A stretch of 64,000 nt of DNA, taken from contig JBEKFP010000001.1 of the NCBI GenBank assembly GCA_050013255.1, positions 32,001 through 96,000 on the forward strand, given 5' to 3'. This document shows, piece after piece, positions 1 to 34,672 of this stretch (the stretch's first letter is position 1; each line of letters begins with the position of its first letter). Under the pieces are notes generated by a model. It was given only the letters and a program-made list of their open reading frames with translations, did no database searches and was not told the origin of the DNA. The DNA is from Candidatus Bathyarchaeia archaeon. GTDB taxonomy: Archaea; Thermoproteota; Bathyarchaeia; 40CM-2-53-6. The position numbers were made by a program, and so were the translations under genes.

Positions 1-18
1 AAACGCCTAGTCAGATAC

Positions 19-627
19 ATGATTAACCTCGCTCTCTTCGCCCTCCTATTCTTCCTGATAACATGGTACGGATCATTGTACGCAAACTACTTGCCTTCCT
101 TCGTGACCTCGACAAGCTGGGGCTGGCTCCTCGTCAGCCTCCTAGGGGCCGTTGGATTAGGGCTTCTGATCTACAAGGCGAAGGGGGCACTGCATTTGCT
201 TGGCATAGTTCTGATCGGCGGACTCACTGGGACATTTCTCGGCGTGTCCATACCCACATTAACGGCGGTCGTGCTCTTGCTAGCCTTAGCGGGCTATGAC
301 CTCTTCGCAGTCTACAAGGGCCCAATAGGGAAGATGGCTGAATCAACCAACCTCGAAGAATTCACGGGCGCCGTTTTTACGTACGGTGATTTGACGGTGG
401 GGATGGGGGATATGGTGTTCTACTCTATGCTCGCGAGCAACTCAATGATGAATTTTGGGCCGATCCCATTCCTCGCCGCGGCTGTTGGTTTGGTAATTGG
501 TGCTTACCTTGGGTTCAAGATGCTTGAAGGGCGGGACATGTTTCCAGGCCTGCCGTTCGCCATAATTCTCGGATTAGTGTTCATGTATGTTGCTTCACAA
601 ATCTTGATCATGCTAAAACCAACCTGA
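19..627 (+). CDS. Presenilin/GxGD-family intramembrane aspartyl protease (probably 5'-truncated by window edge)
   Basis: Multi-TM protein with YD (AGYDLFAV), GxGD (GMGDMVFY) and PAL-like (FPGLP) motifs. Confidence 0.85.
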   Translation: MINLALFALLFFLITWYGSLYANYLPSFVTSTSWGWLLVSLLGAVGLGLLIYKAKGALHLLGIVLIGGLTGTFLGVSIPTLTAVVLLLALAGYDLFAVYKGPIGKMAESTNLEEFTGAVFTYGDLTVGMGDMVFYSMLASNSMMNFGPIPFLAAAVGLVIGAYLGFKMLEGRDMFPGLPFAIILGLVFMYVASQILIMLKPT

Positions 628-986
628 GCGAACACATTCTCCATTACCAGTAGGAATGGGTTACATATTCTCGTTGCAGAGGAAAAGCAACACGATTTAA
701 GCCAAGGTCAGGTCGGAAATCGGAGCTTCCTCCCACCAAATCGGCCCAAAAGAGGGTTCTGTTGGGTTCTAGGGGCTTAGGCTAGGGTGGATAGGTTAGG
801 GTGGTGCCACCCTTCGAGGGGTGGTGCCAAACGGTGCCAAGCGAAGGTAAATCAACCTCTCTTGACCCCAAAAAATGCACCACCCCCCTGGGGGGTCCCT
901 CCAAGCGTGCGCGCACTCTTCTCCGCCTACTATCCCATAAAACTACACCACCCACCCCCCCGCCGCCAAAAACCCGCATTATTGGC

Positions 987-1244
987 CTATCTTCCGGCCT
1001 TGATCTTTTGCCTGAGCTTAATATTCGCAAGCCTGTCCCAGTTTCGAACAATTCGGGGAATATCGTACCCGCATACCTCAACTATGCCTGGGTAAGGGTC
1101 GGTAGTTGGGGCCGTTCTGATTCCAAGGAATTTGGAACAAACAAAGAAGAAGTACGCCCTGCTCTTCGTTGTTACCGCGAATAGAATTCCCGTCCTTTCA
1201 ATGAGCAGTTTGAGCATTGTTCGCTCGTAGATCAGCTTCCTCAT
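987..1244 (-). CDS. Small hypothetical protein (85 aa), last gene of the glycosylation operon
   Basis: ATG (MRKLIYER...) overlaps the TGA of the upstream GT gene as ATGA, typical of translational coupling; no recognisable motif. Confidence 0.5.
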   Translation of the reverse strand: MRKLIYERTMLKLLIERTGILFAVTTKSRAYFFFVCSKFLGIRTAPTTDPYPGIVEVCGYDIPRIVRNWDRLANIKLRQKIKAGR

Positions 1245-1999
1245 CCTTCGCCACTCACGCCTCTTTTCATTCGAAGCCAAGGCTCAGGTTTCACGAAACC
1301 GTATAGAAATTTCAGGTAGAACACTGGTACGTATAGGATGTTCTTCACGTTCCTACTGTTGAGGCTTAGCAGTAGGATCACTTTGAGGGCAAACAAGAGT
1401 TCTCTAGGCTTCGAGTCAGGTAGCACCCTCGTGTTCGCTCCTTCCCACTCGGGTTTGAATTCTCTAAATTGCGAACGATGAACCATCGAATCAAGAACGT
1501 AGTACGTTTTGAGTTTCTGCTCGTCGAGGCGCCTTTGAATGAAATAAGTCTCCCGAGCATCGATATAATCCGGCACAACCTTACCCAAGAAATTGTTCCT
1601 ACGCAGGACAAGTAGACTTGCAGGTAGTCCATACCGAAAACGGTGCCCCATAGCCATCCCCACTACCGCACCATACCCCCTATCCCGAAGGATACTCAGC
1701 GCCAGATCAAAGAAATCGGCTCTCACAATCTCGACGTCACTGTCAACGAAAACGATGTATTCGGTGGTCGCTAATTCAAAACAAAGCTGTCTTGCTCGCC
1801 CCAACCCCTCTCGCTCGGAAAATATCTCCGCATTGAATCTTCTTGCGATCTGAATTGTTCCATCGTCGCTATGGTGATCGACAACTAGGAGCCGTGAATC
1901 AGGAGTGAGCCTTCTGATACTTCCTAGACATTGTTCCAGCGTCTTTGCTGAATTGTAGCTGCAGACACAGAAAGTGAGTCCTTTCACCTCCTTCAACAT
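1241..1999 (-). CDS. Glycosyltransferase family 2
   Basis: GT-A N-terminus (VCSYNS...LLVVDHHSDDGT, GLGRARQ, FVDSD DxD); start placed at ATG 1999, overlapping the upstream stop. Confidence 0.88.
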   Translation of the reverse strand: MLKEVKGLTFCVCSYNSAKTLEQCLGSIRRLTPDSRLLVVDHHSDDGTIQIARRFNAEIFSEREGLGRARQLCFELATTEYIVFVDSDVEIVRADFFDLALSILRDRGYGAVVGMAMGHRFRYGLPASLLVLRRNNFLGKVVPDYIDARETYFIQRRLDEQKLKTYYVLDSMVHRSQFREFKPEWEGANTRVLPDSKPRELLFALKVILLLSLNSRNVKNILYVPVFYLKFLYGFVKPEPWLRMKRGVSGEG

Positions 2000-3237
2000 G
2001 CCGCTCTCCGCCTGTACACAGCTAGAAAATGGTCGCCCAAACGGTTCATCGGGAATATTGTCCCGAGCTTGAAATCTACTGATTTCCACAACCCAAACAG
2101 CTTTCCAGGTGGCAGAAACTTTGTTAGGTTCGAAGGCGGAAGCGTAATCACAACGCCATAGACTTTCTTCAGCTCGAAATATGGGTCAACGATTTTTCCA
2201 AGTGATGCCACGGAGAACGCGTTTGTTGCAACACAAAACCTAGACTTGCCTACAGGTACGGGGTTGCGTAGCCTCGCGAACGCAAGTCTCGGCTTCAACT
2301 TGAACGTGTAGCCAAGAATCTCGTAGAGGCAGTATTTGTTCCAAACACCGAGAATCAGGGGCGCCTCCTCCTTCAGAATATCGTTGAGAACACGTACCGA
2401 TTGATGCAATCGAGGCTCTGTGTTTATCGCGCCATAGGTCGAATAGGCCCCATCGATTCTTGAGAAGCCAAGGTTCGCTATTTTGTCTTTCAGATCGACT
2501 GGCCTTGACCAGACGCATAACACATTATCCGAGAGCCCTGCCTTTTCCGCCTTTGATTTGAGTACCTCGACCATTTTGCTGGAAATGTCTGTCGCAATTA
2601 CTCTTACCCCGGCCTTTGCAAGGCTCAATGTCTCCGTGCCGGTACCGCATCCAATTTCCAGGACTGTATCCCCCGGTTTGAAGAACTCCATCATAACTGA
2701 GACGGAGACGTTACGGAGCCATGTGTTGATTGGGTTTCCGAATATGTGCCTGTCATAATCCTCTGCGACGGCGTCGAAGGCCGCTTCGAGGTCGCCGTAA
2801 ATTATTTCATCAAAACTAGTGGAGGCCCACTCGTTGACGAAAAGTTCAACGTAACTATGCTGGCCCTTGTAATATTGATTCACAACTGCTTTTCCGTATT
2901 TTCGGGTGAATATTGCAAGTAGCGGGTCGTCAAGTCCCGTTATTTGCTTTATGTGTCCTTCGCAATTGAAGATCCGGTTCTGGAAGAACAGCCTTGCTTT
3001 CACATTCCCTTGCAGATTCAGAAACCAGGCGTGCTTCCCTGACCTTCCTGGAAAAACAATGATCCTAACTCCCACTGAAACATACCTGAGCAGAACCTGA
3101 TGTGGCTTTCCACTCTTGCGACCAATGGTTTCAAGTCGGATGTACTGATTCTGGCCGGGTGAGGAATCTATGCCCGATTTAGATGATATCCACGGTTCCC
3201 GCGTTCTTTGAATTTCGCTTTCTCTAAGCTTCTCCAT
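1993..3237 (-). CDS. Fusion of deazaflavin-dependent nitroreductase-like split-barrel domain and class I SAM methyltransferase
   Basis: N-terminal LETIGRKSGKP...WFLNL (DDN/FDOR-A-like signature); C-terminal VLEIGCGTG...ATDISSKM SAM motifs. Confidence 0.75.
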   Translation of the reverse strand: MEKLRESEIQRTREPWISSKSGIDSSPGQNQYIRLETIGRKSGKPHQVLLRYVSVGVRIIVFPGRSGKHAWFLNLQGNVKARLFFQNRIFNCEGHIKQITGLDDPLLAIFTRKYGKAVVNQYYKGQHSYVELFVNEWASTSFDEIIYGDLEAAFDAVAEDYDRHIFGNPINTWLRNVSVSVMMEFFKPGDTVLEIGCGTGTETLSLAKAGVRVIATDISSKMVEVLKSKAEKAGLSDNVLCVWSRPVDLKDKIANLGFSRIDGAYSTYGAINTEPRLHQSVRVLNDILKEEAPLILGVWNKYCLYEILGYTFKLKPRLAFARLRNPVPVGKSRFCVATNAFSVASLGKIVDPYFELKKVYGVVITLPPSNLTKFLPPGKLFGLWKSVDFKLGTIFPMNRLGDHFLAVYRRRAAC

Positions 3238-3331
3238 CTAGCCCTCGACCTCTGTAACTTTCAGCTCAATTTCCGGCTCAGTTCCCACAGAATGCTAAGT
3301 TCATCACAGCTGATAAGAGATATTGACTTGC

Positions 3332-4288
3332 CTAGGATTTAGTTCCGTACCTCTTCCACAAGGCGTGCTTCCTTGTCGACCCGACATTGTCTAGCATTGC
3401 GAGGAACACCGACACCACTTCACCAATCATTGATACAGGTAAGGCGATAATCAACCTCGGATTGTCTGACAGGGTTCTAATGAGGATTGATAAACTGAGA
3501 ACTGGATTTGAGGCTAGCATTGACTCTAGGGTCTTTGGTGATTTGCCGACCTTTTTCCAAATCTGAAGGTGGCCGTAAACGATTCTGCGACGCTGGCGGA
3601 TGACATCCACGAAGTTCTTAGGAACATCGATCTTGACCTTAGCAGTTTGGCAAAACCCAATTGTGTAGCCGGCGAGGTATGCCGTTCCTGCCAGGTACGC
3701 GCCGTCGTTTACCGTATCCGGTGGCAGTTCATGAAGGGCTTCTCCTCGAAGCACCAAGAGTTCGTCACAGCACCGATTGTTAAGATCGTCGACATTTAGC
3801 TCTCGCAAGAACTCGTTATGTACTCCCCACATCAGTTCCAGCACACTACCGGCGAGCCCCGCTCCACCACTCACGATTGGGAGGCCGGAAACCATCCCTA
3901 TCTTCTCGTCCCGCATTATTTCATTCAGCAACCTAGAAATCGCACCTCTCTCAGGGAGAGCGTCGGAATTTACTAGAACCAAGAACTGGCCGTCGAAATT
4001 CTGAATGATCTGATTTATCGCAACGGATTTTCCCCTCCGTATGGGTTCCTCAATCAGCACGAAACGCCGGTCTCGCCGCGCTAGCTCCCGGGCGAAAAGA
4101 AGCGCGCTGGCGTCACAGCCACTTGCAACCAGAACCACCTTCTTTAGCATTAGGCCAGAGGGGTATGATTCAGTCTCGATGAGATCTAGAAGCCTCTCCA
4201 AATTTGCAGCCGAATCCGCAGCACAGATGCCAATCGAAAAACCCACGTCAAGCCTGATATTTTCAGGTAGCACAACACTCTGGCTCAT
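3332..4288 (-). CDS. Glycosyltransferase family 2 (processive-type motifs)
   Basis: RRGKSVAIN, LVNSDA (DxD-like), VND and RQRRRI (QxxRW-like) motifs; C-terminal hydrophobic segments. Confidence 0.8.
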   Translation of the reverse strand: MSQSVVLPENIRLDVGFSIGICAADSAANLERLLDLIETESYPSGLMLKKVVLVASGCDASALLFARELARRDRRFVLIEEPIRRGKSVAINQIIQNFDGQFLVLVNSDALPERGAISRLLNEIMRDEKIGMVSGLPIVSGGAGLAGSVLELMWGVHNEFLRELNVDDLNNRCCDELLVLRGEALHELPPDTVNDGAYLAGTAYLAGYTIGFCQTAKVKIDVPKNFVDVIRQRRRIVYGHLQIWKKVGKSPKTLESMLASNPVLSLSILIRTLSDNPRLIIALPVSMIGEVVSVFLAMLDNVGSTRKHALWKRYGTKS

Positions 4289-4321
4289 AGCACCAAACCA
4301 AACCGCCTGTCCGAGAACAGG

Positions 4322-5278
4322 TTATTCTTCCCACATCGCGCGGAGCCATTCATAGAAATTTGATGTATAGACACACGAGACTGCGCTTATCTTTGGTTCA
4401 AATACACGGAAGTTTTGCCCCTGCGATTTTAGTCTTAAGTTGGTCAGGTATGCCCTGATGCGTAGATATCGGCTCAGGAAAACGTAAGCCATGGCTTCGG
4501 CCCAGTCTAGTGGGAAAGAAAACCACTTTGACCTGTCCCTGGTCTCTACCCTCCGCTCATCAGTCCCATCCTTCAACTCTATGAGCTTCGCAGCGTAGGG
4601 TACCGAATAGAAAACTCCGACCCAGTCGTTACTTTCTAAAATCTTCTTGTATTGATCCACGCCCGCAACAGGTCTTGCTTTGAGAAGTTCGCGGGCAAAT
4701 AGTGGGTTCCTCCTGTTCATTTGAGATTCATGTTCGAAACCTTCCTCGTCGTGGACGTAGCTCAAACAAAAGGGCGACAGGTGAGGAGGCCGCAGGTCTA
4801 GGAGCTTGTTCAACCTAACAAGGACCAATGTCATGAATGCGCTGAGCCAGAGCCTATTTCGCCTTGTGACGATGAACAGGTCGATGTCATCCCATTTATC
4901 GGCGCTCCCGTACGCTACGCTGCCAGTAACAGCAACGGTTCGAATGAAAGGAACCGCCCGTCTCAAAACTCCAGCAAAGCTTGCCGCAGAACCTAACTTT
5001 GCAGCGGACATCTTCTCCCTTTCCAAGCGGGAGGAGTCTAACTGGTTCGGGTTTGTGAGCAAGTATCCATCTTTGATATAGAAGTGAATATCAGGAAATT
5101 TTGTTCCGGCTAATATAGACCGAAGTTGTTCCGCCGTGAGGTTTCTCCTTGGGAGAAAGTAGTTCGCTACCTCGTCCAATGTGAACGGAAACTTGAGGTA
5201 CTCGGATACTCTGAACACCTTCCACAGCCCATCGTAAATGTCGTCTGCTTGATCTTGCACTGGGAAGGTTTCTTGCAA
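4322..5278 (-). CDS. Nucleotidyltransferase (pol-beta superfamily) domain protein
   Basis: TGSVAYG...DDIDLFIV (GS...DxD) catalytic motif; N-terminal helical region (FPFTLDEV). Confidence 0.75.
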   Translation of the reverse strand: MQETFPVQDQADDIYDGLWKVFRVSEYLKFPFTLDEVANYFLPRRNLTAEQLRSILAGTKFPDIHFYIKDGYLLTNPNQLDSSRLEREKMSAAKLGSAASFAGVLRRAVPFIRTVAVTGSVAYGSADKWDDIDLFIVTRRNRLWLSAFMTLVLVRLNKLLDLRPPHLSPFCLSYVHDEEGFEHESQMNRRNPLFARELLKARPVAGVDQYKKILESNDWVGVFYSVPYAAKLIELKDGTDERRVETRDRSKWFSFPLDWAEAMAYVFLSRYLRIRAYLTNLRLKSQGQNFRVFEPKISAVSCVYTSNFYEWLRAMWEE

Positions 5279-5492
5279 CTTAGTTCATCCTCAAGGAATG
5301 GTTCTTGCCTGCGCTAACTCGGGCGCGTTCGCTTGGCACGATATAAAAGAATTACTACTACAATCGTAGTACCTTGGTTGTTCAATCGCACAAGCGGTGC
5401 TGGCTGATTTTGATTGATGAAAACTCATAGAAATTGATTCTTCCATAGAACAAGAATTATTTCCTCAGAAGACTTTCCGTGTCAGAATCACG

Positions 5493-5642
5493 ATGCCATC
5501 ACTCTCATTAAGAAGACTAGGGGCACTTCTAGGAATAATTGACATACTAGAGCTCGGGATACTACTCACCGACCAGATTTTACGAGGAGCAACTGACCAC
5601 TTCTACGCGCTCATTCTCTTCGTTATCATTGACTTCGTCTGA
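5493..5642 (+). pseudogene. Truncated paralog (49 aa) of the membrane protein at 11935-12429
   Basis: My translation MPSLSLRRLGALLGIIDILELGILLTDQILRGATDHFYALILFVIIDFV* aligns with GALLILSAILGIALLALDNVLRTFATLHYYALLAFVVVDIAV; absent from the ORF track. Confidence 0.65.
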
Positions 5643-5851
5643 CTATCCGACTGCTTGGGCAAACCTCGCATCTTTCTACGTATTTGGTTTACGCGGCTCG
5701 TTATTCACGGAAGGTGACGTATACATGTATGCTGCATGGAACTGATAGTGAAGTAGTCGTATGCCTTGCCTACGTCCTTGCGATGCACTACAATAGGTCG
5801 TTCATTCAGACTATTTCGTGAGGCGATTTAGCAAACATTAAGGCTTTTTCC

Positions 5852-5966
5852 TGTGTGTGCGCGCACACACACTAAAACGACGGTTCAAATTCCGTTGCCC
5901 GCACCATTAGAGCGCACACACACTAAACTACGAACGACGACGATTCAAATTACGACGCCCGCACCA
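5852..5966 (+). repeat. Island repeat site A: 20-bp palindrome followed by two tandem units
   Basis: TGTGTGTGCGCGCACACACA (5852-5871) is a perfect palindrome; two units GCGCACACACACTAAA...ACG(G/A)TTCAAATT...GCCCGCACCA with CGCACCA at 5900 and 5960. Confidence 0.9.
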
Positions 5967-6012
5967 TCGATGGCACCCCCAAAAAAACAATTCAAGCTAC
6001 TATTCCGATTAG

Positions 6013-7086
6013 TTACTCTTTCTCAATATCAGCAGCCAGTTTGCGAGTGCCCTGGGCATACATCTTCAGATTCCTCAATTCCTTCTGAGGATGATCTACG
6101 AGTTTCCATTCCTCACCTTCCCGGATGAACGTCCCTAACGATTGACCTGCAAAACTACGTTCAACAGCATAGATTGTTCCTTCACGGAACGTGGCATTTG
6201 GGAATAATTGTTTCAGAGAGGCCTCAGCAATATGATGTTCCGTACTAATCGGCAGTTCTATGAAAGGGGGTGCAAATCCTGATCCCCGCTTCAAGCCACC
6301 GGCCAACTCTGCCATGCTCGATAAGGAGACGGGAAACTTCGCCAGTTCAGCAGCTACCTCACCAGCTTTAATCACATCCTTAAACTCTGGGCGCATTACG
6401 AGATTCCTAATTGCTCGTTCCAGTCTATGCAGTAGGACCGCTGGATGACGAACAAGACCAAGCCTTCCAGAAGTGCTGACCACCGCGGCGTATTCACTTG
6501 AGTCTATGATTCGCCAGAAGAGATTTCGTATGTCTGCCTTTGAAACTTGACCCACTACCTCACTCTTGAACATGAGCGATGGGTCGTATCGCGAAGTGAT
6601 GAAAACAAGTTCAGCAAATCTATACCGTGCTTCACCACTGAATACACTGGTATCTATTTGCGGTGCAAAACACATTACGTGACCTAGCGAGTCGGATGCT
6701 ATTGCCGCTCCATACTTGCATCCGAGCGCTAGATTGTAGAGCATGTCTGAGGCGAAATTTAGAAAAAGGGCCTCATGCGGCTTGCTTGTTTGGTCTTGCC
6801 ACTTGCTTGCTTGATTGCGAATCGGCAACATGAAGTCGTCCACGCGAGACAGTATTTTTCCGTCTCCATCAACCAGCTTGACTAGGTTGCGCCGCGTAGA
6901 CGGCAGCTGATCCAAAACCTCAGCAACTCTATTCCTTTCCGATGCGCTAGGAACAGGAACTATAATCTGATCGGCTCCCAAGGACGTAAGCACAATCGCG
7001 GTCGCATTTAGCATGGACACTCTTACAGGCTGTCCTGACAGCCTACCCACAGCATCGATGTGTTCAAGAACTATCGGGTTCGGCAA
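6013..7086 (-). CDS. Hypothetical protein, paralog of 9071-10153
   Basis: 357-aa ORF with long shared blocks (LTSLGADQI, DGKILSRV, LYNLALGCKYGA, GEARYR, FAPPFIE). Confidence 0.85.
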   Translation of the reverse strand: MPNPIVLEHIDAVGRLSGQPVRVSMLNATAIVLTSLGADQIIVPVPSASERNRVAEVLDQLPSTRRNLVKLVDGDGKILSRVDDFMLPIRNQASKWQDQTSKPHEALFLNFASDMLYNLALGCKYGAAIASDSLGHVMCFAPQIDTSVFSGEARYRFAELVFITSRYDPSLMFKSEVVGQVSKADIRNLFWRIIDSSEYAAVVSTSGRLGLVRHPAVLLHRLERAIRNLVMRPEFKDVIKAGEVAAELAKFPVSLSSMAELAGGLKRGSGFAPPFIELPISTEHHIAEASLKQLFPNATFREGTIYAVERSFAGQSLGTFIREGEEWKLVDHPQKELRNLKMYAQGTRKLAADIEKE

Positions 7087-7191
7087 CTGAACAGGCTCCG
7101 GTTGTCCACAGAGATTTAGTCATCCGAGATTTCAATGAATCGAAATCGGAAGTCTATCGGCGTTGTGAGGTCACTCTAGTCCACGAAGCTT

Positions 7192-7232
7192 TGTGTGGGT
7201 CTAATGGTGCGCACACACACACTTTGAAACGG
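7192..7232 (-). repeat. Island repeat site B (inverted orientation)
   Basis: 7200-7224 is the exact 25-bp reverse complement of 10237-10261; the minus strand reads CCGTTTCAAAGTGTGTGTGTGCGCACCATTAGACCCACACA. Confidence 0.9.
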
Positions 7233-7247
7233 TTGGTGTAGGTGTTT

Positions 7248-7275
7248 GTTGTTAGGGGAGGTGTCCCCTAACAAC
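7248..7275. repeat. Perfect 12-bp inverted repeat (hairpin)
   Basis: GTTGTTAGGGGA-GGTG-TCCCCTAACAAC; a second imperfect GC-rich stem follows at ~7282-7333. Confidence 0.85.
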
Positions 7276-7428
7276 CCCTCCCGGCCCGGTTCCGGGAATC
7301 TGACTACCTAGCATCACTCCCCGGACCCGGCCGCATGTGTCGTTTGAGTGAAATCCGGCCCGGAATCAGACTTTGCGGACTAATGGAACCAACAGGTCGG
7401 AAGAATCAGGAGTTCGAGACTTACGATC

Positions 7429-7980
7429 TTAATTCAATACTTCCCATGCAAACACTCTGACCGCTTGATGAACTGGATGATCTAGCCTTCTGTAGTTCTC
7501 CACCCTCTTCGAAAGTTTGACTCCAATCACTTTTTCACAAATTACCTCGAAGGAATCTATCAACGGGGTGAGGCTGATCTTGGGAGGGGCATGCTCGTAC
7601 CCAATGACTGCGACAGATTTGCGCTCGGAACCTTGAAGCTGCATCAACTTGAGGCAGTCACCTATGCTACTAACGTTTCCCGGATAAGGATGTAGGAGAT
7701 TGACGGACCAGTCTTCTGCTTCCTTCCCGTTGTCTCCGAATGGGCGAACAATCTTGAACTCAACAGCCCAGTCATCTGGGATGAGTAGATCGGGAGTTCT
7801 CTTTGTGACAGCGTTAGCCTTGTACTCTGGAAGATGATTCAGATGAGCAACGATAAGCTTGAGCAGCTGAGGTTCACCGTAGGGTCCCACGCCGGGTTTG
7901 AAAGAACGGAAAGGAATCCGTGACGCATCAACCTCGACGATGGCGTCAGTCACATCGTTCATGAGGTCATAGATATCCAT
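7429..7980 (-). CDS. Putative PD-(D/E)xK restriction-endonuclease-like protein
   Basis: E(PQL)...TPDLLIPDDWAVEFK matches the E...PD...ExK catalytic pattern. Confidence 0.6.
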   Translation of the reverse strand: MDIYDLMNDVTDAIVEVDASRIPFRSFKPGVGPYGEPQLLKLIVAHLNHLPEYKANAVTKRTPDLLIPDDWAVEFKIVRPFGDNGKEAEDWSVNLLHPYPGNVSSIGDCLKLMQLQGSERKSVAVIGYEHAPPKISLTPLIDSFEVICEKVIGVKLSKRVENYRRLDHPVHQAVRVFAWEVLN

Positions 7981-8031
7981 GTACCGGGAATTAGACGGAG
8001 GATTCGTATTAGAGATTTGTTAGCTTGTATC

Positions 8032-8132
8032 TGTGCGCATCTTTAGTACTCTACACACGAGAACTGCGGTTCAAATTTCGTTGCCCGCACCAGCAATACC
8101 ACACACACTTAACGAGGAACAACGGTTCAAAT
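8032..8132 (+). repeat. Island repeat site C
   Basis: CGGTTCAAATTTCGTTGCCCGCACCA (8067-8092) is 25/26 identical to 5881-5906, followed by CCACACACACT...ACGGTTCAAAT (8099-8132). Confidence 0.9.
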
Positions 8133-8175
8133 CGTCGATTTTTTATCCAGTGTTCCACCTCTCTATCCGAGACCC

Positions 8176-8973
8176 TTGCACCCGGCTCACGAAATCCCGC
8201 AACATGGCAACCTCGTTCCGGCCTATTCGCGCTTTATCTTGCTTACCTACCTCAACCAAGTCGCTCAAACCATCTCAGCCAAGTTAACACTCGACCATAC
8301 TAGAGATGAAAGAGGACTGACGGACGATCTCATCGAAGAGCTAGTTCGATGGGATCAAACAACCCTGCCAGAATCATTGCACTATGAGGGATGGAGACTT
8401 GAGTTGCGAATGAGTAAAGTCACACAGAAGTTAGAGAGTCAATTAGGAGCAGATCTCGGCCTTATCACAACCCTTAGCACACGTATGTGTCGCGTCGAAA
8501 AGGCTCTACTTTTCCAATGCAAGCGCCTTCACCCTACAGGACAATCTGAATTCACCCCTGAATCTTGCTACGGAGACCTTATGGAAGAACATGGTCGAAA
8601 GCAGGCGACAGATATGCTTGCTCATACACCCGCGAGTTTCTTCTTATTGTTTAACCCAAGAATCTCTCACGTGCACAATGATTTGGAACTAATCAATAGC
8701 AAGCCATTGAGAGAAGATCATGGAGTCAGTCTGCACGCCGGATTCCAAGATATTCTCATATTGCCTGCTACCACGCGCATTGGAATGCATAGCACGGGAG
8801 GCCTCGAAGATTTGTTTCCATATACAACATGCTTCTCTCAATTCATCGTTCAGGACGTCTTCCAATGTAACGTAGGTGATGCGTCCGCGTTGGCGCTGGC
8901 CACTGCTAGAAACAAGAACGAGGAATTTCGTGTCCGGATTTCTCTCGAAATGGACCTGCTCTTTGAAGACTAG
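8176..8973 (+). CDS. Putative PD-(D/E/Q)xK nuclease-fold protein
   Basis: ESQLGADLGL...ALLFQCKRL matches the E..GAD...QxK variant; start codon uncertain. Confidence 0.55.
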   Translation: MHPAHEIPQHGNLVPAYSRFILLTYLNQVAQTISAKLTLDHTRDERGLTDDLIEELVRWDQTTLPESLHYEGWRLELRMSKVTQKLESQLGADLGLITTLSTRMCRVEKALLFQCKRLHPTGQSEFTPESCYGDLMEEHGRKQATDMLAHTPASFFLLFNPRISHVHNDLELINSKPLREDHGVSLHAGFQDILILPATTRIGMHSTGGLEDLFPYTTCFSQFIVQDVFQCNVGDASALALATARNKNEEFRVRISLEMDLLFED

Positions 8974-8997
8974 ATTTGATTTGACGTCAGGCATTTT

Positions 8998-9034
8998 CTG
9001 GGGGGGTGGGTCAGCTGGTGCGCACACACACAAA
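8998..9034 (-). repeat. Island repeat site D (inverted orientation)
   Basis: Minus strand reads TTTGTGTGTGTGCGCACCAGCTGACCCACCCCCCCAG; core TGGTGCGCACACACACA at 9016-9032. Confidence 0.8.
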
Positions 9035-9070
9035 GCGAGGGACTTGGTCAACGTGGCCGCGGATTTTTTC

Positions 9071-10153
9071 CTACTTTCGATATCCTCGCACGATATTGGT
9101 AGCAGCTATTCGTGAGCGATCCGCGGACCTACGGAGGTGTTCTAGAGTTTCTTGTGGACGATAAGAAAGCTTCGCCTCTTCACCATCATTCAACCACTCA
9201 AGATATGATGCATTATTGAGGGTCGCTTCAGTGGCATAGATAGCTCCTTTTGGAGGGACTGCATCAGGAAATGATTCCGCGAGAGAAGCCATAGCAATCT
9301 GATAATCCGTAGTGATAGGAATTTCGATGAATGGAGGAGCAAATCTGTTTCCTCGTTTCAATCCGTCAACAGCTAACTCTGCCACCTTGGATAGTGGAAC
9401 CGGAAGATTGGCCAGTTCCGCTGCAGTCTCAGCGGCTCTAATTGCCAGTTTGAAATCTTCACGTTTCACAAGGCTTTCAATCGCTCTTTCCATCCTGCGC
9501 AATAACACGTCCGGTTTGCGAACTAAGCCCAGTTTTCCCGAGAGATTAACTACGGTTGAATATTCGCTCGACTCTATGATTTTCCAAAACAGACCGCGTA
9601 TGTTTGCCTCAGAAACTTGTCCAACCACCTCAGTCCCTCCAACAAGAGATGGGTTGTATCTTGATGCAATGAGTGCCAATTCAGCCAATCTGTATCGTGC
9701 CTCACCATGAAACAATCCTGGATCGATTATTGGGATGAACTCCATCATATGGGTCAAGTCATAGCATGCGACAGAGGCTCCGTATTTGCAGCCAAGAGCA
9801 AGGTTGTACAAGGCGTTTAGCGCAAAAGTCACAAAAGTGTCTTCTGGCCACTTCGATGCCTGTTTCCCAATTGGCATTAGGTAATCGCGAACGCGGGACA
9901 GTATTTTTCCATCCTCATCGATCAGTCTTATTCGATTTCGACGAGTGGTTGGTACTTGCTGCAGGGCCTCAGCAACCCTTTCTCTTTCATTTGACCCTGG
10001 AACAGGAACGAGAATCTGATCTGCTCCCAATGATGTAAGTAGGATCGCAGACGAATTGAGGGTGGACGCTTTTACAGGTTTGCCTCCCAATTCTCCCAGA
10101 ACGTCTTTGTGTTCAAGAACTACCGGATTTTCCAACTCCCACGCCCCTCGCAC
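9071..10153 (-). CDS. Hypothetical protein, paralog of 6013-7086
   Basis: 360-aa ORF, colinear with the 357-aa protein and roughly half identical by eye. Confidence 0.85.
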   Translation of the reverse strand: MRGAWELENPVVLEHKDVLGELGGKPVKASTLNSSAILLTSLGADQILVPVPGSNERERVAEALQQVPTTRRNRIRLIDEDGKILSRVRDYLMPIGKQASKWPEDTFVTFALNALYNLALGCKYGASVACYDLTHMMEFIPIIDPGLFHGEARYRLAELALIASRYNPSLVGGTEVVGQVSEANIRGLFWKIIESSEYSTVVNLSGKLGLVRKPDVLLRRMERAIESLVKREDFKLAIRAAETAAELANLPVPLSKVAELAVDGLKRGNRFAPPFIEIPITTDYQIAMASLAESFPDAVPPKGAIYATEATLNNASYLEWLNDGEEAKLSYRPQETLEHLRRSADRSRIAATNIVRGYRK

Positions 10154-10218
10154 TACCCGATATCAAGCTAGGCTCTACTCGTTCTCCTCTGAATAGAGAT
10201 TTCCATTCAGCTCAAATC

Positions 10219-10322
10219 TTGAATCGTCGTCCGTCTAAGTGTGTGTGTGCGCACCATTAGAGCCACACACACAAAATAACGCCTGAACTGACGGTTCAAA
10301 TCACTATCAGTACCACACACAC
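10219..10322 (+). repeat. Island repeat site E
   Basis: AAGTGTGTGTGTGCGCACCATTAGAGCCACACACACA...ACGGTTCAAAT (10291-10301)...CCACACACAC; 10219-10231 is the reverse complement of GACGACGATTCAA in site A. Confidence 0.9.
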
Positions 10323-10459
10323 GAAACGCGCACCTCTTTTGATTGGGAATCAATCATAGGGCTGAAGATTTCGCACTGGTGGTTTGTTTATTCACAGTTG
10401 AGAATTGTTCATCGCGAAATCCGGCTTCGACAAGCCCTCCTGTCGTCGGGGACGTTAGG

Positions 10460-11896
10460 CTATAATCGATCAAGAACTGGGTGGTGCAGCCCCTCGTGAA
10501 GCGTCTTCTCCCAGAATCTTGCACCCCGTAGCATCTGCCAAAGGGCTCTGAGAACCGGTAGACCCCAGAGAATCCAATAGAACATTATCGTGGAAACTGC
10601 GAGTCCGTAGTAATGTACTTTCTCCGTTATTCCATTGACCGTTTTGCCAACCGTTGCGGCAATTCCCCGAACTGTCAGTAAGATGTGCCACAATAATAGA
10701 AGCATGTTGAAAGTGCTGAGGGTGGCAAGCCACGGGTTGTCCACAACGGGGAGGAGTGAAGTTGGCAGCGAAATTCCTGAGGCTAACTGAATTGGCAAAA
10801 GAATAGCGACCAGCAAAGATAGCACCATCAATGGGTAGCCTATTATTGAGAGAAAAGGAACGAAGAAACCGAGCAGATAGTAGAACATAAGAAAACCGAT
10901 TCCAAACCGCCGTCTAAGTGGGAAATCTCTCCAGTACTTTCCTAGTCGCCCCACGGTGTAGAGAGTGCCCCGTATCCAGCGCGTTCGCTGATTAGCCCAT
11001 CCACCTTCGTTCCGTGTCCTCAGCAGCGTCCTAGGTGCCTCTTCATAGGTATCCACGTCGATAATGCCAACCCGATAGCCGTATCCGTAGAGTCGAAGCC
11101 CAAGCTCCAAATCCTCCGTAACGTTCGTTGGGTCCCACCCTCCAAGGGAATTCAAGACATCACGGCGGATGTAGTAGCAGGTTCCCCCAAGAGCCACTGG
11201 AAGACCTCTCATCCGAACCTTTGGAAGAAGCCATGCAAACCAAAATGCATAGTCCCCGACGGACTGAAGCGACAACCAACTGTCCCTGTAATTGATGAAC
11301 CTAAGCCTTCCTTGGACAGCGTCGAACCCATTAACTTGCAGACACTGAGCTGCCTTTCGAAAAACCAAAGGATCACCTTGCACATCCTCAGCATCAACCA
11401 CTGTCACTATCTCGCCTGTGGCCATTGGCAATGCGTAAGTGAGGGCTCGCGGCTTCGAATCAGGCAACTGCTCCGCGTCAATATCAGCCCATTTGGCTCC
11501 TCGTTGTCTGACTTGGGAGATAAGTAGGTTCCATGATGGATCGCTATTGTTTGGAACCACAAGATGGGTCACGCCTAATTCTCGCGACATCCGGTCCGCT
11601 ATTACGCCTGTGTTCATGTCATCAGAATCCGTAACTAGCAATATCTCCTTCTTTTCGACGGGATAATCCAGAGAGGTGAGTGAGAGAAGACTGCGCCTAA
11701 GGACCGATTCTGGCTCATTCCTTGCTGCAAGAATAGCAGTTATTCTTGGCAGGTCCGCCGACCCGTCCGGAAGAGGATTCGCTGCGTCAACGAAAAGTCG
11801 TTCACGGCCTGAACACCCTAAGAAGAAGATCTTGGCGTTCCAAACCAAATAGAGAATCTGTGTTACAACTATGAAAAGGAGTACGTCAGCAGGCAC
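10460..11896 (-). CDS. Processive GT2 glycosyltransferase (cellulose-synthase-like)
   Basis: KPRAL, VVDAED, TEDL and QRTRW (D,D,D,QxxRW) motifs; C-terminal TM helices. Confidence 0.9.
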   Translation of the reverse strand: MPADVLLFIVVTQILYLVWNAKIFFLGCSGRERLFVDAANPLPDGSADLPRITAILAARNEPESVLRRSLLSLTSLDYPVEKKEILLVTDSDDMNTGVIADRMSRELGVTHLVVPNNSDPSWNLLISQVRQRGAKWADIDAEQLPDSKPRALTYALPMATGEIVTVVDAEDVQGDPLVFRKAAQCLQVNGFDAVQGRLRFINYRDSWLSLQSVGDYAFWFAWLLPKVRMRGLPVALGGTCYYIRRDVLNSLGGWDPTNVTEDLELGLRLYGYGYRVGIIDVDTYEEAPRTLLRTRNEGGWANQRTRWIRGTLYTVGRLGKYWRDFPLRRRFGIGFLMFYYLLGFFVPFLSIIGYPLMVLSLLVAILLPIQLASGISLPTSLLPVVDNPWLATLSTFNMLLLLWHILLTVRGIAATVGKTVNGITEKVHYYGLAVSTIMFYWILWGLPVLRALWQMLRGARFWEKTLHEGLHHPVLDRL

Positions 11897-11934
11897 CTAG
11901 GAACAGCTCAACAGAGAATGATCTCAGATTGGTG

Positions 11935-12429
11935 TCATTTTGCTTTGGGGGAGAAGGGATGGCCGAGCTTCCACGCGATGGCTATGACTGCGAGCTCTAG
12001 TATGAGAGTAAGGTCAATAAGTAGCCCTGGGACCCCGGGAGGGTTTCCGAAACTGACGGACAGGCTGCTAGCGGGGTTAAACAGATAGTCGGCAAACTGC
12101 CCATAGCTTGAGAATCGATAAACTGAGGCTTGCGAGACGTCAGCAAATTGCAAAATGACCCTGAGTACGCACCATATGATCGCAATCGAGAAAACCATCT
12201 TCACCGGTCTAGCAAGAACATAGATCCCAACCGCGATGTCAACAACTACGAATGCTAACAGCGCATAGTAGTGTAGGGTCGCAAAAGTTCGCAGAACATT
12301 ATCAAGAGCCAATAGTGCAATTCCCAAGATGGCGCTAAGGATGAGCAACGCCCCACATGCTTTCGAAGCCCTGGGGCCTTGAGGAACTGACAATTCAACC
12401 CACTTTAGCAAGGAAAGCGGGGGCGTCAT
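11935..12429 (-). CDS. Hypothetical membrane protein (about 4 TM)
   Basis: 164-aa hydrophobic ORF directly upstream of the GT2 gene. Confidence 0.75.
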   Translation of the reverse strand: MTPPLSLLKWVELSVPQGPRASKACGALLILSAILGIALLALDNVLRTFATLHYYALLAFVVVDIAVGIYVLARPVKMVFSIAIIWCVLRVILQFADVSQASVYRFSSYGQFADYLFNPASSLSVSFGNPPGVPGLLIDLTLILELAVIAIAWKLGHPFSPKAK

Positions 12430-12507
12430 ATATATTTATTACTACGCTTGTAGTAGCTTTAATGCATAGCATAGTTTATGAAGTGGAAAGTGTGTTGTGG
12501 CAAAATC

Positions 12508-12885
12508 ATGACAGATTCTGAGTTCCTCAAGGCCTTGACATCAACTGAAGCGATAGACCTTACGGTTAAGGATCAGAAAACTGGACGAAGCAGCTCGAGA
12601 CCAGTTTGGTTTGTCATGGAAAGCGAAAAGCTGTATCTTCTCCCAATGACAGGGTCCGACTCAGAATGGTATAAGAATATACTCGTCAACGCTGAAGTGC
12701 AAATCTCTGCCAGGAGTCCATTAAGAGTGTTAGGGATGAAGGGCAGAAAACTAACCGCGAACACCAAACCGATACAAGCCTCAGAAGTAGCGGACGTGGT
12801 TCAGAAGTTCAAATCGAAATATGGAGCAGCAGAAATTAGCAAGACTTACTCCAAACTTGATGCAGCTGTGCAGGTTCTGATCTAG
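12508..12885 (+). CDS. Deazaflavin-dependent nitroreductase-like / split-barrel protein
   Basis: LTVKDQKTGRSSSRPVWFV...SEWYKNI pattern; alternative start at 12478. Confidence 0.7.
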   Translation: MTDSEFLKALTSTEAIDLTVKDQKTGRSSSRPVWFVMESEKLYLLPMTGSDSEWYKNILVNAEVQISARSPLRVLGMKGRKLTANTKPIQASEVADVVQKFKSKYGAAEISKTYSKLDAAVQVLI

Positions 12886-13067
12886 ACGCATACGAAATAA
12901 AAGTCGTCATCCGGTACATAACTCCGAGTTCCCCATGCTGGGGAGTGACAATATTCGAAGCCAAGAGTGAGGAAGCAGTGTTCAACGCACAACTTCTTTT
13001 GGGCACTGAGGGTCAACCGGTCTCGTTGATCGATGGAGGAGACGTCTGTGTATTGGCGCTGAGAAGC

Positions 13068-13247
13068 TTACTTGCTCTTCATGAGGTCGTAGTCGAGACC
13101 TATCCATATCACGCTGGCCACCCCGATAATTACGCCTGCAGCCAGCCATGGCAGGTACGTATAGCTAGTCCAAGTCCACCATAAATCTGCAATGATAATT
13201 ATGATTCCCATCAAGATTGCAAGGTAGGACTTCGCATTAGTAGTCAT
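13068..13247 (-). CDS. Small 2-TM membrane protein (59 aa), missed by the ORF track
   Basis: MTTNAKSYLAILMGIIIIIADLWWTWTSYTYLPWLAAGVIIGVASVIWIGLDYDLMKSK; two clear hydrophobic helices and a basic tail. Confidence 0.6.
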   Translation of the reverse strand: MTTNAKSYLAILMGIIIIIADLWWTWTSYTYLPWLAAGVIIGVASVIWIGLDYDLMKSK

Positions 13248-13929
13248 TCAAAATCCAACAAGTGTGTTTGCTTGATCATCGGCTAAAAAATCTTTGGTTA
13301 AGTTGTCCAGACGATCTTGTTTGCAGTTCAAGTCGACAATCCGTTGGCAATCCGATTTTGGAGACGCATACGATGCAGAATCGGAAATAGTCAGGTTCCT
13401 CGGCCAGAAGGAACTGAAGTCTACTGTCTTTAGAAAGATACCTAGTCTGTCACCATCGAATGCCCGTGCACTGTCGGACTCGCCCAAGGTTACTGGTTCG
13501 ATTCCTCGCATGTATAAATACCATCTGTAAAATTCTCTTTGCAGAAGGACAGATTCCAGCTACACGAATGGGCCATGACTGGCTAAGTCTACCGATTGCT
13601 TGTTCATTTTCGCATGCCCCAAAGAGTTCTACTCCGCGTTCCACAGATAATAGACTTTTCAAACAAAATCCCTCCAGCATAATGTAAAGGAAAGTGGGAC
13701 TCTACTTACTACATACGTGCGCGGTAGCTTTCTGCTCGTTGCAATATGCGATTGAGGTTTGCACTCTAACGGAGAGTAGTTAAGGTGGTTTTCGTAGGTA
13801 TTGGTGCGCGGCATGACGTGGATTGACCTGCACCGAGGCGCCTCACGCCAGATGAGGAGATGCATCTCCGCTGACCGCAATAACCCTTATAGTGAATAGG
13901 TGGTTCTTGCCGTCTCGAACGGTGCCCGA

Positions 13930-34537: not shown

Positions 34538-34672
34538 CCGCCGTATGCGCATTCTCGCAGACGACAGCTCAGTGGTGGAGCAGCGGACCCTTATTGGAAA
34601 GGGGCTGAAGCTGTTAAGCGGGCAGACGCAGCTACCCGTTGGTCGCAGGTTCGAGCCCTGCCGGCGGCGCCA
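34537..34672 (+). tRNA. tRNA-Asn(GTT) with three BHB introns (8/9, 30/31, 37/38) and encoded CCA
   Basis: Exons 34537-34544, 34566-34586, 34610-34616 and 34634-34672 assemble into a cloverleaf: acceptor GCCGCCG/CGGCGGC, D stem GCTC/GAGC, anticodon stem GCGGG/CCCGT with loop CTGTTAA, T arm GCAGG-TTCGAGC-CCTGC, G73, CCA. Confidence 0.9.

Follow-up and report, generated by a model that had tools for sequence, protein, structure and literature searches.

Copies of a tRNA 3′ end as probable casposase targets bounding gene arrays in a Bathyarchaeia genome

Introduction

Casposons are thought to be ancestral to CRISPR adaptation. To our knowledge, the described casposons are few, large and self-contained, and occupy one or a few chromosomal sites. 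The family-2 casposons of M. mazei generate a 14-bp duplication at the 3′ end of a tRNA gene (PMC6977970, PMC4779613). The first four bases of this duplication, CGCA, are also the last four of tRNA-Leu and are both invariant and essential, and the target consists of the duplication together with about 30 bp of upstream tRNA sequence, in which mutation of bp 12–17 abolished activity (PMC6977970). Tandem M. mazei casposons share one duplication, and solo terminal repeats are found adjoining CGCA (PMC6977970, PMC4779613).

Here, we describe an array of genes within a 64,000-nucleotide stretch (the window; G000:C1:32001-96000) of a 2.46-Mb Bathyarchaeia genome (G000), the tRNA genes of which bear introns and encode CCA. 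The metagenome runs containing the window stretch stem from peat and wetland. As in M. mazei, Cas1 is present as a solo protein with a C-terminal extension, and integration is seen at the 3′ end of tRNA sequence with a 14-bp CGCA duplication and apparent involvement of about 30 bp upstream. Terminal inverted repeats, tandem units with one shared duplication and solo repeats beside CGCA are likewise common to both. Unlike in M. mazei, however, the targets are mostly about 40–70 dispersed decoys, many of which reside within the end modules of the units themselves, and the majority of units contain no Cas1 but one or a few unrelated genes as cargo. Moreover, the two Cas1 units have no family-B polymerase and, in contrast to described casposons, carry defence-type cargo, and the CGCA-reading arginines are unconserved in the alignment. 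Because the tRNA genes of this genome encode CCA, the duplication starts 7 nt, and not 4 nt, before the gene end. Casposase integration at tRNA 3′ ends is known; portable decoy targets and Cas1-less cargo units forming arrays are the new element, and no description of this combination was found in the searchable literature.

Results and Discussion

A repeat in register with tRNA 3′ ends

The repeat in question is an exact 25-mer, GGTTCAAATTCCGTTGCCCGCACCA, at window positions 5882–5906, and its first 18 nt form a leader (GGTTCAAATTCCGTTGCC, 5882–5899) that mimics the T-loop and the 3′ strand of the acceptor. An earlier note on the letters of the window had listed this 25-mer with a near and a decayed copy, and all three were located: the near copy at 8068–8092 has 1 mismatch, where chance would yield no copy (0/100 shuffles), and the decayed copy at 5942–5966 retains 21/25 identity (4 mismatches). 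The exact tRNA register that had been claimed was confirmed by comparison with the intron-bearing tRNA at window 34557–34672 and with 35 tRNA 3′ ends, all CCA-encoding, as the span of 25 nt from GGTTC to CCA equals positions 52–76 of the real tRNA genes of this genome. When the 25-mer was aligned to the 35 canonical tRNA 3′ ends (found by pattern), as the same note had proposed, identity ranged from 15 to 21 of 25, with two tRNAs tying at 21. The first is a Leu-type tRNA ending at C1:310426, in which 11/12 of the final nt match. The second lies at C1:1132371-1132501, has the acceptor GCGGCCG/CGGCCGC-A-CCA, and is probably a tRNA-Gly(GCC) with two introns (the anticodon loop was read by eye as CU-GCC-AC), the Gln call by ARAGORN being doubtful. 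The CGC-A-CCA end that had been ascribed to tRNA-Leu and tRNA-Gly is carried by the Leu-type and the probable Gly tRNA of the host itself. Directly 3′ of the tRNA at C1:1132371-1132501 comes CGCACCACAACCCT, followed by a decayed casposon terminal repeat. Since this tRNA adjoins both a 14-mer and a decayed terminal repeat, a real tRNA end has served as a site just as the decoys have.

The tRNA that had served for comparison in the earlier note is a real one (34557–34672; Rfam tRNA, 28.3 bits vs. a cut-off of 29), and is missed by ARAGORN in its default mode because of its introns. Spanning window 34539–34672, it has at least two introns and is probably tRNA-Asn(GUU), with the 5′ acceptor strand GCCGCCG apparently located at 34539–34545, upstream of the Rfam match.

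Genome-wide, the family comprises about 40–70 copies (about 40 full and about 30 partial) with the consensus ACGACGG-TTCAAATT-CCGTTG-CCCGCACCA-TTAGACC-(CA)n. The spacer between TTCAAWTT and CYCGCACCA measured 6 nt in 26/26 exact matches, with 0 matches for spacers of 2–5 or 7–11 nt, so the spacing from TTCAAA to CCA that had been singled out as a check is kept in further copies. Within the genus, copies were present in 23/23 genomes searched, at 1 to 60 per genome. Outside the genus, the pattern mostly matched real tRNA ends where matches were listed, and one genome from another family yielded 13 matches.

Identical 14-mers flank a composite element in the window

The array in the window is made up of the following features:

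5852–5872, no strand: perfect palindrome (GT)n-CGCG-(CA)n, two termini head to head without a 14-bp core
5882–5906, plus strand: 25-mer, consisting of the tRNA-like leader (5882–5899) and CGCACCA, the first 7 nt of the duplicated target
5900–5913, plus strand: target-site duplication copy 1, CGCACCATTAGAGC, 14 bp, starting with CGCA
5914–10249, no strand: non-autonomous composite of 4.3 kb that has inverted (CA)n ends and holds four cassettes of one gene each
5942–5966, plus strand: decayed 25-mer copy, located in the terminal module at the left end of the composite
6013–7086, minus strand: cargo gene 1 (357 aa), which has cargo gene 4 as a paralogue
7198–7211, minus strand: inner 14-bp core, inverted, reading CGCACCATTAGACC on the minus strand, between GTGTG and (CA)n termini
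7212–7420, plus strand: terminal repeat (roughly 200 bp) of the element G000:C1:1330273-1346555, which carries Cas1, here as a solo copy
7429–7980, minus strand: cargo gene 2, 183 aa
8068–8092, plus strand: near 25-mer copy with core CGCACCAGCAATAC (8086–8099), then a (CA)n terminus at 8100
8124–8133 and 10293–10302: GGTTCAAATC remnants
8176–8973, plus strand: cargo gene 3, 265 aa
9009–9022, minus strand: inner 14-bp core, inverted, reading CGCACCAGCTGACC on the minus strand, with a (CA)n terminus at 9023
9071–10153, minus strand: cargo gene 4 (360 aa), sharing 57% identity with cargo gene 1
10250–10263, plus strand: target-site duplication copy 2, CGCACCATTAGAGC, identical to 5900–5913
10264–10326, plus strand: decayed terminal module of older origin, located 3′ of duplication copy 2, with a (CA)n terminus, the GGTTCAAATC remnant at 10293–10302 and a second (CA)n run

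The copy at 5882–5906 was used as an integration site, with a 4.3-kb block lying between the identical 14-mers at 5900–5913 and 10250–10263. The last seven bases of this 14-mer, TTAGAGC, are rare among the ~77 sites, and the exact 14-mer occurs at these two positions only. The composite begins with GCACACACACTAAAC... and ends with ...CTAAGTGTGTGTGTG, and its inverted ends of about 27–40 bp, which contain ACGACGATTCAA.ATT, belong to an inverted repeat of 5901–5940 vs. 10224–10263 (i.e., CACACACAC-TAAAC...ACGACGA vs. its complement). Since the window units encode no Cas1, they are non-autonomous.

Inside the composite, the cores alternate in orientation (5900+, 7198–, 8086+, 9009–, 10250+), and no matching duplications of the inner cassettes were found within it. 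A simple single-insertion model for these cassettes was discarded, as the cores alternate in orientation and differ in their last seven bases. The scrambling is assumed to reflect either paired units that were co-mobilised and reinserted in reverse, or inversions between identical termini. The (CA)n half of the palindrome at 5852–5872 is the terminus of the module carrying the 25-mer, and the palindrome itself may have arisen by deletion or be a scar resembling a circle junction. Following the 14-mer of the decayed copy (CGCACCATCGATGG, 5960–5973), no clear element terminus was identified, which indicates that this site is either unoccupied or decayed.

The paralogous cargo genes 1 and 4 each reside in their own unit of the array. 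None of the four cargo genes matched a family in Pfam, PADLOC or NCBIfam, the structure search with a cargo protein relied on a poor Atlas model that gave no usable neighbour, and a query with cargo gene 1 returned nothing from 22 other genomes of the genus. In three relatives (G014, G018 and G004; DNA identity with G014 92%), synteny jumps from window ~5281 to ~13727, marking window ~5356–13650 as a lineage-specific 8.3-kb island. In the empty site of these relatives, the flanking genes are 130–250 bp apart and no tRNA gene is present.

At the outer borders of the island (5356–13650), no casposon-type site was seen, and a short segment near 12438–12455 is inverted relative to the empty-site sequence of G018. 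Window 1–5278 and 10460–11896, around the island, encode family-2 glycosyltransferases, a methyltransferase fusion and a nucleotidyltransferase, so that the surroundings look like a surface-glycan locus, which is a typical hot spot for accessory DNA.

Cas1 elements occupy the same type of site

The genome harbors two Cas1 genes, and no Cas2 was found in it. Both Cas1 genes lie within segments bounded by the leader, a perfect 14-mer, the element and an identical 14-mer:

C1:1330273-1346555, 16.3 kb: Cas1 element 1, with 14-mer CGCACCATTAGACC and about 200-bp inverted ends starting with CACACACACACTTTGAAACGG
C3:228079-239043, 11 kb: Cas1 element 2, with 14-mer CGCACCAGCATACC and ends CCGCCCCCGCCGCC
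C1:1333417-1334640 and C3:231179-232393: Cas1 genes

This architecture is the same as that of the window composite, and it also bounds several other units here and in relatives. The Cas1 protein encoded on C1 matched the M. mazei casposase structure 6OPM with an E-value of 4e-74 over residues 4–402, the C-terminal extension included, vs. 6e-24 for the best CRISPR Cas1 and weaker values for the others. In M. mazei, CGCA is read by two arginines (R191/R192), and in the alignment with 6OPM these correspond to H and Q. Window 7212–7420 aligned with the two ends of the C1 element at 80% mean column identity (three copies), the first ~145 columns being mostly invariant across the three copies. As a solo terminal repeat of the C1 Cas1 element, this segment ties the sites of the window directly to a Cas1-bearing element.

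The copies of this terminal repeat (window 7212–7420; G000:C1:1330273-1330480 and 1346350-1346555) contain conserved hairpins, e.g., GTTAGGGGA...TCCCCTAAC and CCGG...CCGG. The repeat ends in the tRNA-like leader, and a possible 5′ acceptor strand (GCGCAC/GTCCGC) is located about 55 nt upstream. It gave no match in Rfam, and may represent either a structured RNA or a pseudo-tRNA that has degenerated.

The cargo of the Cas1 elements (C1:1331656-1346372, C3:232395-233159) is of defence type and includes AIPR, a DndB-like protein, an N6/N4 DNA methylase and a TIR-domain protein. No family-B polymerase was detected in the 19 ORFs tested of both elements, the remaining ORFs all being under 230 aa. 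All PF00136 matches of the genome are on contig C2, and PF03175 (protein-primed PolB) gave no match in the genome, with a model that barely matched the control genomes either. Lacking a family-B polymerase, the Cas1 elements are not canonical casposons. Across the genus, Cas1 was found in 12/23 genomes and the repeats in 23/23; Cas1 matches and repeat counts were only weakly and not significantly correlated (rho 0.24, p=0.27), and G011, which is 99% complete, has 44 repeat copies and no Cas1.

Anatomy of the sites and a proposed mode of integration

Each site consists of a 14-mer CGCACCA+N7 followed by an element terminus, mostly (CA)n. On its left side, the 14-mer is preceded by the tRNA-like leader, by a (GT)n terminus forming the right end of another unit, or by GGCGGCGGGGGCGG, with which the second Cas1 element ends on its right. 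The terminus begins exactly 14 bp after CGCA in four unrelated types, namely (CA)n, CCGCCCCCGCC, GGGGATATTACATAAGG and CACACCTATGAAAAGTC (in short form (CA)n, CCG, GGGG and CACACCTATG). A GGGG-type unit of 5.2 kb (C1:716105-721311) has inverted ends of >40 bp and flanking 14-mers that are 13/14 identical.

Two further element families with the same tRNA-like target and 14-bp offset were observed, with termini GGGGATATTACATAAGGCTCAT... and CACACCTATGAAAAGTCT... (C1:716105-721311; C1:197649, 633267 and 1153263; C2:746092). The family with the GGGGATATTACATAAGGCTCAT terminus is the 5.2-kb unit with long perfect inverted ends, and no Cas1 was seen in either family.

Identical last seven bases were shared by 11/86 nearby core pairs of the same orientation, vs. 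96/2632 distant pairs (Fisher p=4e-4) and 2/87 nearby pairs of opposite orientation (p=0.008 vs. the same-orientation pairs). Besides the pair in the window, ten perfect 14-mer pairs occur genome-wide, which is an enrichment over controls. Perfect pairs were also present in another species that lacks Cas1, e.g., one with the same layout at G011 locus L046 (7006/8047). In all 8/8 identical pairs with a leader-bearing site, the leader was located upstream of the inserted DNA, as expected if it directs integration, and distal copies of the duplication share the 14-mer only and not the leader. Within the leader, the conserved GGTTCAAATT lies 9–18 bp upstream of CGCA.

Taken together, the 25-mer is probably a portable copy of a family-2-type casposase target, corresponding to the terminal ~25 nt of tRNA genes that end in ...CGCACCA. 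By analogy with M. mazei, the casposase, for which Cas1 is the likely candidate, would read the upstream leader (GGTTCAAATT-N6-CC, a mimic of the T-loop and acceptor strand) as its recognised feature, and would then cut the strands 14 bp apart, starting from CGCA. After repair, the inserted unit would be flanked by two 14-mers CGCACCA+N7. Since the mimic is carried inside the terminal module of the units, each insertion would bring along a new landing pad, and units could in this way accumulate as repeat-gene-repeat arrays that require no real tRNA gene. The presence of 14-bp duplications starting with CGCA (14–15 bp being typical of family 2), of Cas1 without Cas2 but with a C-terminal HTH extension inside the element and of terminal inverted repeats, all of them family-2 hallmarks, argues for this reading, as do the absence of the island from three relatives and the fixed 6-nt spacer, which, without covariation in a stem, fits a protein site on double-stranded DNA. 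On the other hand, the alternating inner cores (+ – + – +), the core-less junction at 5852–5872, the unconserved arginines, the imbalance between Cas1 and repeats across the genus and the missing element-encoded family-B DNA polymerase, a further family-2 hallmark that denotes self-synthesising elements, speak against it.

We further propose, tentatively and with slightly less than even confidence, that the arrays represent a natural Cas1-driven gene-cassette system which, as a living intermediate, stands between casposons and CRISPR arrays. In such a system, the decoy in the end module of non-autonomous units would recreate the leader with the 14-bp repeat, so that each insertion would plant the next landing pad, several terminus families would share one casposase in trans, and accessory genes that are partly of defence type would be gathered at many loci without real tRNA genes.

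Alternative roles for the tRNA-like motif

A casposase might also have made the sites while the tRNA-like motif itself is either a part of the terminal repeat to which the ends are bound or a fossil of the original tRNA target, so that the arrays would mostly be relics shaped by recombination. The leader motif ACGACGGTTCAA.ATT is indeed found in left-end modules and, inverted, in right-end modules, 15–30 nt from the terminus, and part of its conservation may therefore stem from a role in end binding and not from one as a target. In addition, half of the repeat-bearing genomes of the genus have no Cas1, the inner cores are scrambled in orientation, and no structural variants were seen in metagenome contigs from 2017–2020, in which the repeats reach 10–100x the depth of unique parts and contigs break at repeats. 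The 'joints' listed from these metagenomes have sides of 20–35 nt that lie within repeats, and are not readable as excisions. Nevertheless, we consider the relic scenario unlikely, given that leader sites are occupied even where no (CA)n terminus lies upstream of them (e.g., C1:716075), that the four unrelated terminus types share both the site and the 14-bp offset, that the leader-upstream polarity holds for every identical pair with a leader-bearing site, and that several duplications are perfect although the terminal repeats differ by about 20%.

A different possibility is that the motif works in RNA, as a tRNA-like minihelix serving as a processing, 3′-end or terminator signal between cassette transcripts. 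tRNA-like elements are known as processing signals in archaea, and the copy at 5882–5906 can be drawn as a 6-bp hairpin followed by CCCGCACCA. The hairpin CGACGG/CCGTTG described in the earlier note does form in this copy upon folding (–7.8 kcal/mol), with a z-score of only –0.69 vs. shuffles, but it fails to form in the other two window copies. Over 40 genomic copies, pairing in this stem was 0.55 vs. 0.54 in shuffled controls, pairing in the T-stem of the tRNA register was 0.475 vs. 0.512, and only 0–3 of the 40 copies were fully paired. Furthermore, the sites are on one strand while the adjoining genes are on both, and Rfam gave no match. With neither stem conservation nor covariation, the suggested tRNA-like RNA processing signal finds no support, and a function in RNA is considered very unlikely. 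Because the primary sequence and the fixed spacer are conserved and the stem is not, the motif is better understood as a double-stranded DNA site; it is retained at the level of primary sequence, as a site at which a protein binds duplex DNA would be. The motif likewise does not represent a tRNA gene or the 3′ half of a split tRNA, as ARAGORN and Rfam detected no cloverleaf or 5′ half at the sites and pairing in the T-stem (G53-C61) did not exceed that of shuffles; the statement that no 5′ tRNA half is adjacent was correct.

Archaeal integrases commonly target tRNA 3′ ends, and the earlier note had accordingly suggested tRNA-derived att sites, reused as cassette boundaries and recombined by an SSV1/pNOB8-type tyrosine integrase. 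The first half of this suggestion stands, in that the repeat is derived from a tRNA 3′ end, in register, located at boundaries and acting as an integration site; the latter follows from the identical 14-bp direct repeats starting at CGCA that flank the inserted blocks, with the leader always upstream. The enzyme, however, is probably a casposase. Three tyrosine recombinases are encoded elsewhere in the genome:

C3:28755, tyrosine recombinase
C3:131514, tyrosine recombinase
C2:259232, tyrosine recombinase

Although 2/3 of these are found beside tRNA genes, 0/3 adjoin an array. The units, moreover, have terminal inverted repeats, their direct repeat measures only 14 bp and starts just inside the 3′ end at CGCA, and the leader is absent at the distal end, which is typical of a transposase-type duplication and not of an att core. 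An integrase of this type is thus highly improbable as the source of the sites.

Inverted ends are absent from IS200/IS605 elements, and their insertion generates no duplication. An ordinary MITE family that is moved by an IS transposase (e.g., of the TnpB/IS605 type) and unrelated to Cas1 can hardly account for the array, because even though the units are short, intergenic and numerous with inverted ends, and TnpB genes are present (one beside two copies at C1:855564-855651), the genome has no Y1 transposase, a 14-bp duplication initiated by CGCA at a tRNA-like site is a trait specific for casposases of family 2 (PMC6977970), and both the termini and the duplication are found in the Cas1 elements as well. 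A Y1/REP-type transposase was accordingly rejected as the mover, and a link to TnpB was dropped as well, since the two TnpB genes, one of which is near two copies, show no general association with the repeats. At the locus of that gene (C1:854941-855651), the TnpB-type gene precedes a tRNA-like match that is weak (26.8 bits, 855328-855462), after which come two decoy-like sites (855564-855587, 855627-855651) in which the CCA end is missing.

Comparison with other array-forming systems

The arrays share several traits with CRISPR arrays, in which a leader-like sequence likewise precedes a short duplicated repeat. By analogy, entry at the leader-proximal repeat through Cas1 chemistry would generate polar repeat-insert-repeat arrays in both cases. 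In contrast to CRISPR arrays, the repeat is 14 bp (vs. 24–47 bp), and the inserts are irregularly spaced, 0.05–16 kb long and equipped with their own inverted ends and genes, whereas CRISPR spacers are regular and 26–72 bp long. Furthermore, Cas2 and effector genes are lacking, and the arrays are scrambled in orientation.

Like integron cassettes (attC/attI, IntI), which have also been reported in Archaea, the units consist of single accessory genes, promoter-less or self-contained, between short sites in strain-specific islands. Unlike integrons, they have no conserved imperfect hairpin of the attC type (R''-L''/L'-R'), as assessed by the pairing and folding tests, and no adjacent tyrosine recombinase, while their target duplications and terminal inverted repeats point to chemistry of the transposase type. 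A third parallel exists with Tn7-like transposons at attTn7 or tRNA genes, where one conserved site is reused, resulting in islands of stacked and partly defective elements; an analogy between Tn7 and casposons has been drawn before (PMC4779613). The enzyme is a different one, however, and in the present case the elements take copies of the site along as they disperse.

The target found here (i.e., the tRNA-like leader with the 14-bp repeat) is portable and multi-copy, and apparently used by many Cas1-less cargo units throughout the genus. If confirmed, this would mean that leader-repeat-insert arrays can result from the activity of a Cas1 integrase at a stage when no immune function yet exists, and it would add a third route of gene-cassette assembly in prokaryotes to those of integrons and tyrosine-integrase islands. 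It would also provide a defined DNA substrate of about 45 bp with which to probe what the HTH domain of the casposase recognises.

Finally, GTATAACATATGCTAGAC had been considered as a fifth terminus downstream of tRNA-Leu genes, and was rejected since this 19-mer is present at 13 unrelated intergenic places. Its loci, with the sequence GTATAACATATGCTAGAC(A/G), include C1:524969, 829989, 413575 and 421746 as well as C2:487936, and two of the 13 are directly 3′ of tRNA genes. The 19-mer looks like a promoter element.
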